DNA of 64,000 nt, from assembly GCF_041886205.1 (NCBI RefSeq), contig NZ_CP169029.1. One strand, written 5' to 3'. The position numbers were made by a program, and so were the translations under genes. Position 1 is the stretch's first letter. The number at the start of each line of letters is the position of its first letter. Below the pieces are notes generated by a model. It saw nothing but the letters and a program-made list of their open reading frames with translations. It was not told the DNA's origin and ran no database searches. This document shows positions 58,575 to 59,847 of this stretch, piece by piece. This DNA comes from Escherichia coli. Lineage in GTDB: Bacteria; Pseudomonadota; Gammaproteobacteria; Enterobacterales; Enterobacteriaceae.

Positions 58575-59351
58575 ATGTCCGAAACAAAAAATGAACTTGA
58601 AGACCTGCTGGAAAAAGCAGCAACCGAACCGGCGCACCGCCCGGCCTTTTTCCGTACTCTACTGGAATCCACCGTCTGGGTGCCTGGTACGGCGGCGCGG
58701 GGCGAGGCGGTGGTTGAAGATAGCGCGCTTGATTTACAGCACTGGGAAAAAGAAGACGGCACCAGCGTCATTCCTTTTTTTACCTCGTTAGAAGCACTTC
58801 AACAGGCAGTTGAAGACGAACAGGCATTTGTCGTAATGCCCGTTCGCACATTGTTTGAGATGACCCTTGGCGAAACGCTCTTCCTTAATGCCAAACTGCC
58901 AACCGGTAAAGAGTTTATGCCGCGTGAAATCAGTTTGTTGATTGGTGAAGAAGGGAATCCGCTGAGTAGCCAGGAAGTACTGGAAGGCGGTGAATCGCTG
59001 ATATTATCGGAAGTCGCAGAGCCGCCAGCACAAATGATTGATTCACTCACCACCTTATTTAAAACCATTAAGCCAGTGAAGCGTGCTTTTATATGTTCAA
59101 TTAAAGAGAACGAAGAGGCACAGCCTAATTTACTTATTGGCATTGAAGCCGATGGTGATATCGAAGAAATTATTCAGGCGGCGGGAAGTGTAGCGACCGA
59201 TACATTACCTGGCGATGAACCAATCGATATTTGTCAGGTGAAAAAAGGGGAAAAAGGAATTAGCCACTTTATTACCGAACATATTGCGCCATTCTATGAA
59301 CGTCGTTGGGGTGGTTTTTTGCGTGACTTTAAACAGAACCGGATAATCTAA
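58575..59351 (+). CDS. sseB: protein SseB (enhances serine sensitivity)
   Basis: Start refined to MSETKNELEDLLEKA (258 aa). Confidence 0.85.
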   Translation: MSETKNELEDLLEKAATEPAHRPAFFRTLLESTVWVPGTAARGEAVVEDSALDLQHWEKEDGTSVIPFFTSLEALQQAVEDEQAFVVMPVRTLFEMTLGETLFLNAKLPTGKEFMPREISLLIGEEGNPLSSQEVLEGGESLILSEVAEPPAQMIDSLTTLFKTIKPVKRAFICSIKENEEAQPNLLIGIEADGDIEEIIQAAGSVATDTLPGDEPIDICQVKKGEKGISHFITEHIAPFYERRWGGFLRDFKQNRII

Positions 59352-59800
59352 AATATGCCGCCCCAAAGGGCGGCATTCGGGCTTACCTGCTGTTCTGAAG
59401 GTTGTTAACCACCAGTAAATTGTTGCCGGAGAGACTCAGGTTATTATTTACCTCGGTTAACAGCGCACCAGAAACAATAAGTACGATACAAAAGCACCGT
59501 ATCTTCATTGTGCGGTCCATGCGAAGACCGCATCACGACAGCACCACTGGCGATATTGCCGCGATAGCAAGCGCTGTGAAACACCTGCATTTACGGCCAC
59601 GGAACATCCTTTCCTAAAGCCAGCGCCCGTTTGCGAGACGGCGGAAAGGGCCGGTGTCGATAATACGCTAAATAAACAATAATTACTCTCTTTTGCTTGA
59701 CAAAAAGAGAGTTGCTGGCGAATATTGCTCTGCTGTGAAGCACCTGCGTTGCTCATGCAACACAAGTCAACCTGCTGGAAAGGCCGCGAACCAGACCAGC
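59352..59800. ncRNA. ryfA: putative sRNA locus (position consistent with ryfA) in the sseB-sseA convergent spacer
   Basis: 500-bp gap between convergent genes, bounded by hairpin terminators on both sides and containing promoter-like hexamers; I recall ryfA being annotated between sseA and sseB but cannot verify strand or ends from sequence. Confidence 0.35.
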
Positions 59801-59803
59801 AAT

Positions 59804-59834
59804 AAAAAACCGCCAAATTCGGCGGTTTTTTATT
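59804..59834. terminator. bidirectional rho-independent terminator (sseA 3' end / opposing short transcript)
   Basis: aaaaaaccgcc-aaattc-ggcggtttttt, GC stem flanked by A-run and T-run. Confidence 0.6.
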
Positions 59835-59847
59835 GCCTGTAAAATAC

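Follow-up and report, generated by a model that had tools for sequence, protein, structure and literature searches.

The closest described relative of the locus considered here is the timP-timR (timPR) system of Salmonella (Andresen et al., 2020, PMC7667032; Eleftheraki and Holmqvist, 2024, PMC11228461; Eleftheraki et al., 2026, PMC13000454). In this organism ryfA has been renamed timP, and it encodes a 38-aa inner-membrane toxin that is translated from position +145 (PMC7667032). Toxicity has been demonstrated for the Salmonella protein alone, which is toxic when overproduced (PMC7667032). The 5' end of TimR (STnc2070), a divergently encoded RNA, pairs with 18 nt of the timP leader, and translation is blocked (PMC7667032). 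[quoted passage not shown] The linker known as site 2 (C57, C58, and G59) pairs with the 5' arm of SL4, thereby freeing the SD (PMC13000454). The mRNA is not processed, and the switch is purely structural (PMC11228461). A short upstream ORF with an SD-like sequence was already noted by the group working on Salmonella timP. Mutation of the AUG of this 8-codon uORF, which begins at +53, to AAG left timP translation unchanged (PMC11228461). The mechanistic experiments on timPR, including those on the repression of TimP by TimR, were all performed with the Salmonella allele (PMC7667032, PMC11228461).

Homologous RNAs have been described in other enterobacteria. Northern blots have revealed TimR in UPEC CFT073 and APEC CH138, and RyfA has likewise been detected in E. 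coli (PMC13188913). A Sec-type signal sequence is predicted for the TimP homologue of CFT073 (PMC8205139). For Shigella dysenteriae, the RNAs RyfA1/RyfA2 and RyfB1 can be compared by description, as reported by Fris et al. (2017, cited in PMC7667032). In that account RyfB1 is the TimR homologue and its overexpression lowers RyfA1; ryfA is described as duplicated, whereas a single timP and a single TimR are found here.

More distant parallels exist among other type I systems. The pairs tisB/istR-1, shoB/ohsC, zorO/orzO, and dinQ/agrB also combine a small hydrophobic toxin with a back-to-back sRNA gene, and a short complementarity in the leader lies far upstream of a sequestered ribosome-binding site (RBS). 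However, the tisB, shoB, zorO, and dinQ mRNAs need nucleolytic processing or a standby site, in contrast to the structural switch of timP (PMC11228461). In hok/mok/sok and repA/tap/CopA, an upstream ORF overlaps the antisense site, and this ORF is conserved and required.

The window, a 64,000-nt stretch of Escherichia coli DNA, contains between sseB and sseA what is very probably the E. coli copy of the enterobacterial timPR (ryfA) type I toxin-antitoxin locus. The ryfA covariance model (Rfam RF00126) matches positions 59350-59654 of the minus strand over its full length (model positions 1-296) with 313.8 bits against a gathering score of 80 (E = 7.9e-88). Within this match, a 41-aa ORF scores 77.7 bits with the NCBIfam model NF040796 (toxic_TimP), for which the cut-off is 45. 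The same ORF is annotated as timP by PGAP in an identical RefSeq genome, and the annotation recurs in nearly all of the matches listed among 5425 E. coli genomes. The spacer region, taken as 601 nt, is present in 5425 of 5426 complete E. coli genomes. An earlier note on this DNA had pointed out the likeness to the Salmonella TimP/TimR locus, and these scores bear it out. Its proposal of a type I toxin-antitoxin module in the spacer also stands insofar as a module is present, but both the toxin ORF and the geometry of the antisense RNA had been misassigned. As a discovery the locus has little value, since it has been described in the literature together with its toxin ORF, the antitoxin sRNA, and the structural switch, and RefSeq E. 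coli genomes already carry the timP annotation. The present analysis is useful instead for what it corrects. Within a structured leader, an SD-like motif next to a short ORF does not make that ORF a toxin gene, and the actual toxin ORF sits about 100 nt downstream of the 24-codon ORF that had been proposed.

The locus shares a number of features with that of Salmonella (Table 1). Both loci lie next to sseB, belong to the same Rfam family, and place the timP AUG at +145. They also share the leader of four stem-loops, with the pseudoknot and site 2-site 4 sequences at identical nucleotide numbers, the divergent TimR with its 5' seed directed at SL2, and both terminators. The two loci also differ. 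TimP is 41 aa long in E. coli and 38 aa in Salmonella, and the C-terminal halves are unrelated in sequence. The E. coli sequence of the SL2/TimR seed differs from that of Salmonella, with matching changes on both partners. In Salmonella, position +46 begins an AUA, so that only the 8-codon uORF from +53 exists, whereas the allele of the window has a 24-codon frame from +46. Lastly, STM2534 lies between sseA and the module in Salmonella, and the window has no such gene.

Table 1. Features of the timPR locus in the sseB-sseA spacer of the window. Transcript ends and regulatory elements are predicted.
Feature	Position	Strand	Basis or remark
timP mRNA (formerly sRNA RyfA), ~303 nt	59350..59652	-	Rfam RF00126; inferred 5' end
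Putative timP -10 box TATTAT	59660..59665	-	7 nt upstream of inferred start
SL1	59608..59649	-	Rfam consensus structure; RNAalifold, 12 lineages (columns 4-46)
Pseudoknot site 1, CGCUGGC	59619..59625	-	Predicted partner of site 3
SD-like motif AGGAAAGG	59608-59615	-	3' arm of SL1
24-codon ORF (leader uORF), AUG at +46, peptide MFRGRKCRCFTALAIAAISPVVLS	59533..59607	-	ATG at 59607
Site 2, GGCCGU, +55..+60	59593..59598	-	Would pair with SL4 5' flank, freeing the SD
TimR-binding site in SL2, +62..+81	59572..59591	-	20-nt complementarity to TimR 5' end
SL2	59567-59588	-	Carries TimR-binding site
SL3	59532..59565	-	Holds pseudoknot site 3
Pseudoknot site 3, GCCAGUG	59545-59551	-	In SL3
SL4	59512..59531	-	Predicted to sequester timP SD
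Site 4, GCGGUC	59526-59531	-	5' arm of SL4
timP SD, GGA in AUGGACC	59514-59520	-	Within SL4
timP coding sequence, 41 aa, MKIRCFCIVLIVSGALLTEVNNNLSLSGNNLLVVNNLQNSR	59383..59508	-	NCBIfam NF040796, PGAP
Intrinsic terminator of timP	59355..59376	-	9-bp stem, 7 GC pairs; 3' end of Rfam model
TimR promoter, TTGACA (59697-59702), 17 nt, GAATAT (59720-59725)	59697..59725	+	Promoter scan
TimR antitoxin sRNA, ~100 nt	59732..59832	+	Start inferred from -10 box, end from terminator
TimR seed	59731-59750	+	TimR 5' end
Bidirectional terminator, common to TimR (+) and sseA (-)	59799..59836	.	Inverted repeat, fold

For comparison, loci of other species were gathered through protein searches and contig look-ups. 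A word-indexed protein search returned TimP only from Escherichia, Shigella, and Citrobacter, and an exhaustive profile search then brought in four others that are more distant. The long repetitive proteins P0096, P0099, and P0101 from the latter search were low-complexity matches and were set aside. A scan of genome contigs with the SL4 pattern GATGCGGTCNNNGCANNGACCGCAC proved too strict; it yielded six stretches, four of which were relevant, the other two being chance matches in Phycisphaeraceae and Branchiibius.

The toxin gene is, judging from its sequence, the 41-codon timP ORF and not the 24-codon ORF upstream. Its start falls between +144 and +147 in all 12 lineages compared, its frame is kept in each of them, and the indels deduced from the protein alignment comprise whole codons. 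The protein measures 38-41 aa, save for one variant of 49 aa. The core CIVLIVSG is conserved across the 12 lineages, and the conserved hydrophobic N-terminus as a whole reads MK(I)RxFCIVLIVSGAL. Synonymous changes have accumulated over the first 18 codons, with up to 7 of them against 5 nonsynonymous ones. A 45-aa extension of TimP (MDRT-MKIR..., AUG at +133) was rejected as the true start. The start at +145 is backed by NCBIfam, by PGAP, and by the Salmonella start-codon mutant, and the +133 AUG is absent from the Salmonella-like locus L017.

The 5' end of the timP mRNA was placed by alignment with L017, and the resulting start at 59652 puts the timP AUG at +145, as in Salmonella (PMC7667032). 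L017 is a suitable guide in that it reproduces both the published uORF (+53..+79) and the published 18-nt TimR duplex. At the position of the putative -10 box, 11 of the 12 lineages read GTATTAT and the remaining one, L020, GTTTTAT; no good -35 element was found upstream of this box. Another minus-strand promoter candidate, TTGTCA-16-TATTGT (59703-59676), would start transcription about 16 nt upstream of the start given by Rfam and Salmonella homology, and it was not adopted because its conservation is limited to E. coli types A and B (see below for these types). The mRNA has a fold z-score of -4.99. The hairpin that the earlier note had offered as a minus-strand terminator was found again and is predicted to end the timP mRNA.

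The leader is compatible with the timPR architecture, with four predicted stem-loops, a sequestered SD, the pseudoknot, and the pairing of sites 2 and 4. RNAalifold recovered SL1 to SL4 from the alignment of the 12 lineages. All 7 pairs between sites 1 and 3, as well as all 6 pairs between sites 2 and 4, can form in 12/12 lineages, and site 2 carries the same numbering as C57/C58/G59 of Salmonella (PMC13000454). Double compensatory changes in the pseudoknot or in the site 2-site 4 pairing were not seen among these lineages. Since the variation in the 13 long-range pairs is limited to exchanges among GU, AU, and GC, the alignment allows these pairs without proving them independently.

The plus-strand unit is identified from its sequence features as TimR, the divergent antitoxin sRNA. 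The earlier note had recognized a TTGACA with a -10 element about 17 nt downstream, and these elements were confirmed; the promoter scan favours an 18-nt spacer with AATATT, for which 10 of 12 positions match. All 12 lineages have TTGAC[AT] at a distance of 45-58 nt from the opposite-strand start of timP, together with a GAnTAT box in which A2 and T6 are invariant. The predicted transcript agrees with the 90-100 nt proposed before and would run into the bidirectional terminator, a 19-nt inverted repeat that is 95% complementary and is flanked by T-runs on both sides. Several RNA families matched the plus strand below threshold, namely the antitoxin sRNA families AgrB (31 bits against 40) and ohsC (26 bits against 50), both at 59753-59834, as well as RNAI, IS128, and leader families. 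Membership of TimR in any of them was rejected because it is mainly the terminator hairpin that produces the matches. A 28-nt palindrome, ACTCTCTTTTTGTCAAGCAAAAGAGAGT, spans 59685-59712 between the two divergent promoters, with its centre at the -35 box of TimR. E. coli types A and B both have it, related AAAAGGGAG repeats occur in other genera, and it could be a regulator-binding site or mere promoter symmetry.

The TimR seed pairs without interruption with +62..+81 of the timP leader over 20 nt, 3 of which are G-U pairs, while no run exceeded 17 in 200 shuffles. In the other 11 lineages the duplex forms at the same leader position and differs in sequence, with matching changes in both partners. 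The uninterrupted run measures 16-20 nt in 10 of these 11 lineages and 12 nt in L004, and the same method recovers the published 18 nt in L017. The length of the uninterrupted run was used as the measure because RNAduplex of the full-length RNAs was uninformative (-75.6 kcal/mol compared with -68.3 +/- 5.1 for shuffles). The complementarity stems from a 19-nt direct repeat (59573-59591 and 59732-59750, 159 nt apart). A search for inverted repeats did not show the TimR/SL2 pair, since on one strand of the DNA the pair is a direct repeat. According to the earlier note, the plus-strand RNA would be antisense to the minus-strand mRNA by overlap. This part of its model fails, as transcription is predicted to start at 59652 (minus strand) for timP and at ~59732 (plus strand) for TimR, and the two units diverge from points separated by 80 nt. 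With divergent starts and a separate repeat, TimR would therefore engage in a non-overlapping, trans-type seed interaction.

From homology and the Salmonella experiments, the mechanism in the window can be outlined with high confidence. The minus strand would be transcribed from ~59652 to 59350 into the timP mRNA of ~303 nt (RyfA), whose 144-nt leader would fold into four stem-loops, with SL4 hiding the SD of the 41-codon ORF. Translation would need both the SL1-SL3 pseudoknot (sites 1 and 3) and the pairing of site 2, GGCCGU, with the 5' arm of SL4. The product, TimP, is predicted to be a small protein with a signal-like hydrophobic N-terminus; the Salmonella TimP inserts into the inner membrane. 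Pairing of the 5' 20 nt of TimR with SL2 would disrupt the active fold and block translation.

The 24-codon ORF and its ATG at 59607 on the minus strand, with which the earlier note was mainly concerned, are present as stated. The note had also placed a strong RBS 4 nt from this ATG. An AGGA core is indeed found 4 nt away, but the motif as a whole, AGGAAAGG, abuts the ATG. The supposed strong RBS constitutes the 3' arm of the conserved stem SL1, where its partner is CCCUUUCC from the 5' end of the RNA, both in the Rfam structure and in that from RNAalifold. The frame begins directly after SL1 and spans site 2, SL2, and SL3; its stop falls within the 5' arm of SL4, which leaves 20 nt to the timP AUG. 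As an ORF call it does not rise beyond chance. The spacer contains 7 ATG ORFs of at least 24 codons, and when its sequence was shuffled 1000 times with dinucleotides preserved, 29% of the shuffles contained an SD-preceded ATG ORF of this minimum length.

The conservation of this frame in related genomes does not hold up, with stops, lost AUGs, or frameshifts in 6 of the 12 lineages. It is open over 24 codons in six, comprising E. coli types A and C (3 loci), Superficieibacter, C. freundii, and L018. A TAG at codon 6 closes it in two (E. coli strain R6, L024, and E. whittamii, L006). The AUG is absent from a further two, the Salmonella-like L017 and Citrobacter MGH106 (L008), which read AUA or ACA and retain the 8-codon +53 uORF in another frame. 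In the last two the ORF is frameshifted, to 54 codons by a 2-nt insertion in L019 and to 33 codons by a 1-nt deletion in L020, and the C-termini of the products are unrelated. Thus the uORF lengths are 5, 8, 24, 33, and 54 codons, although the AUG at +46 is kept in 10 of the 12 lineages. The variable columns are spread over the three codon positions (12, 15, and 10 of 23 for positions 1, 2, and 3), and relative to the window the changed codons include 0-2 synonymous and 5-13 nonsynonymous ones. The exchange of G56 for A, for instance, replaces Gly by Asp in the uORF, yet the pair between sites 2 and 4 is kept (G-U to A-U). What conservation the uORF sequence has is attributed to the RNA elements around its AUG, SL1 and site 2. 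The 24-codon ORF is best read as an incidental open frame, neither a toxin gene nor a required leader peptide. Occasional translation may occur, since the AUG is kept in 10/12 lineages and the frame is open in 6/12.

Against this background, the proposal of the earlier note that the 24-codon ORF encodes a small membrane toxin, repressed by an overlapping plus-strand antisense RNA, has almost no probability left. The ORF, the SD-like motif, and the AUG all exist, the peptide has a basic N-terminus followed by an uncharged stretch of 16 residues, and the TimR seed site lies inside the frame. However, the 24-aa peptide has no match among the NCBIfam families, and a comparable ORF is expected in more than a quarter of shuffled spacers, as noted above. 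The SD-like motif is paired in SL1, a stop at codon 6 interrupts the frame in the majority allele of E. coli, and the frame is lost or shifted in the Salmonella-like locus, Citrobacter MGH106, L019, and L020. Its substitutions are nearly all nonsynonymous, the timP mRNA and TimR do not overlap, and a conserved, annotated toxin ORF, which the earlier note did not mention, lies downstream. A different role for the same frame, along a line of thought raised in PMC7667032, would be that the +46 uORF, where open, is translated and that ribosome transit tunes timP in cis, in the manner of mok/hok or the repA leader peptide. On this view the ribosome would displace TimR, break the pseudoknot, or open SL4 as it crosses the linker, SL2, and SL3. 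We regard this as very unlikely. Such a role would suit an AUG that most lineages retain and an ORF that ends within SL4 shortly before the timP start. On paper the 24-codon ORF does overlap the antisense site, as the upstream ORFs of hok/mok/sok and repA/tap/CopA do, but it is not conserved, and its Salmonella equivalent, though in a different frame, is dispensable, as the start mutant left translation unaffected (PMC11228461). Moreover, its length and frame vary, with the 5-codon form in ~55% of E. coli genomes, the stem that hides its SD-like motif is one on which translation depends, and the conservation near the AUG is accounted for by SL1 and site 2. The corresponding idea for E. coli, that the uORF is translated at a low level in types A and C (~45% of complete genomes) and that this melts SL2 and SL3, is likewise highly improbable. 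If true, it would give these types an allele-specific extra control of TimR binding and timP translation, a layer missing from Salmonella and from the majority E. coli allele.

A further reading concerns the RNA as a whole. In E. coli, the 300-nt RNA might act mainly as a regulator (RyfA) with TimR as its RNA partner, the TimP ORF being of minor importance. This is a possibility of some substance, though we think it doubtful as the principal role; as a dual function it is compatible with the toxin-antitoxin explanation and deserves the same tentative standing. In UPEC, ryfA phenotypes were complemented by alleles in which the TimP ORF had been destroyed (PMC8205139), and in APEC the deletion of timR had little effect and was nearly silent (PMC13188913); a regulatory role may therefore coexist with the toxin role or outweigh it. 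The decay of the locus in several Escherichia lineages points in the same direction. On the other hand, the TimP ORF stays in frame, with whole-codon indels and a hydrophobic core conserved across genera, the leader elements that serve only the translational control of timP are conserved as well, and no direct RNA target was found in the RyfA literature consulted. In any case, a regulatory role of RyfA bears on the function of the locus for the cell and not on the identity of the 24-codon ORF.

Within E. coli, the leader occurs in at least three types. They were counted with 125-nt leader queries against 5426 complete genomes, the identity band serving as a proxy for the allele. Type A, that of the window, has the 24-codon uORF and matches 1993 genomes at >=95% identity. 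Type B, with a uORF stop at codon 6, matches 2992 of the 5426 genomes (~55%) at >=95% and 2808 at >=99%, the stop itself having been read in L024 and L006 only. Type C, as in O157, has a 24-codon uORF with other residues and matches 590 genomes at >=95%. The same three types distinguish alleles of the SL2/TimR seed (window 59567-59591 and 59731-59750; loci L024 829-953 and L021 829-953), in which both partners change together. Type A is found in the window and in K-12 timP, B in ~55% of complete genomes, and C in O157-like genomes. These co-changing seeds look like a diversification of toxin-antitoxin specificity within one species, of which no description was found in the timPR and RyfA literature consulted.

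The copy number of the module also varies. K-12-like loci (L002 1860-2350, strain Dam/Dcm, and L022) contain two TimR genes. The one adjacent to timP is of type B and has only 11 nt of pairing with the type-A leader, which is chance level. The distal one, adjoining sseA, is of type A and pairs over 20 nt; it is followed by a ~15-22-nt remnant of the timP 5' end and ~150 nt of AT-rich DNA. With 7006 matches of the 601-nt query in 5425 genomes, second copies are common. In L019 (780-1400), a complete timP/TimR module with a perfect 20-nt seed duplex is found outside the sseA-sseB interval. Its neighbours there, a gene of the Hha family and one for an ImpB/UmuC-type polymerase, suggest that the copy is mobile or lies on an island.

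Elsewhere the locus has been rearranged or has decayed. In E. marmotae (L009-L011, 1040-1370), the stretch that separates the TimR seed from the SL2 site, the two copies of the 19-nt repeat, is missing, consistent with recombination between these copies. Both promoters, SL1, the TimR 5' end, and the stem of the TimR terminator are gone, and the timP ORF is intact and annotated. In E. albertii (L012-L013, 970-1440), a 26-nt deletion has taken the 3' half of SL4 together with the timP AUG, and the frame of the +53 AUG enters that of TimP to give a 63-aa annotated "hypothetical protein". Finally, in L023 (E. coli P276M, 1400-2200), a rearrangement breaks timP after codon 7, sseB is a pseudogene, and the proximal TimR-like copy carries yet another seed sequence.
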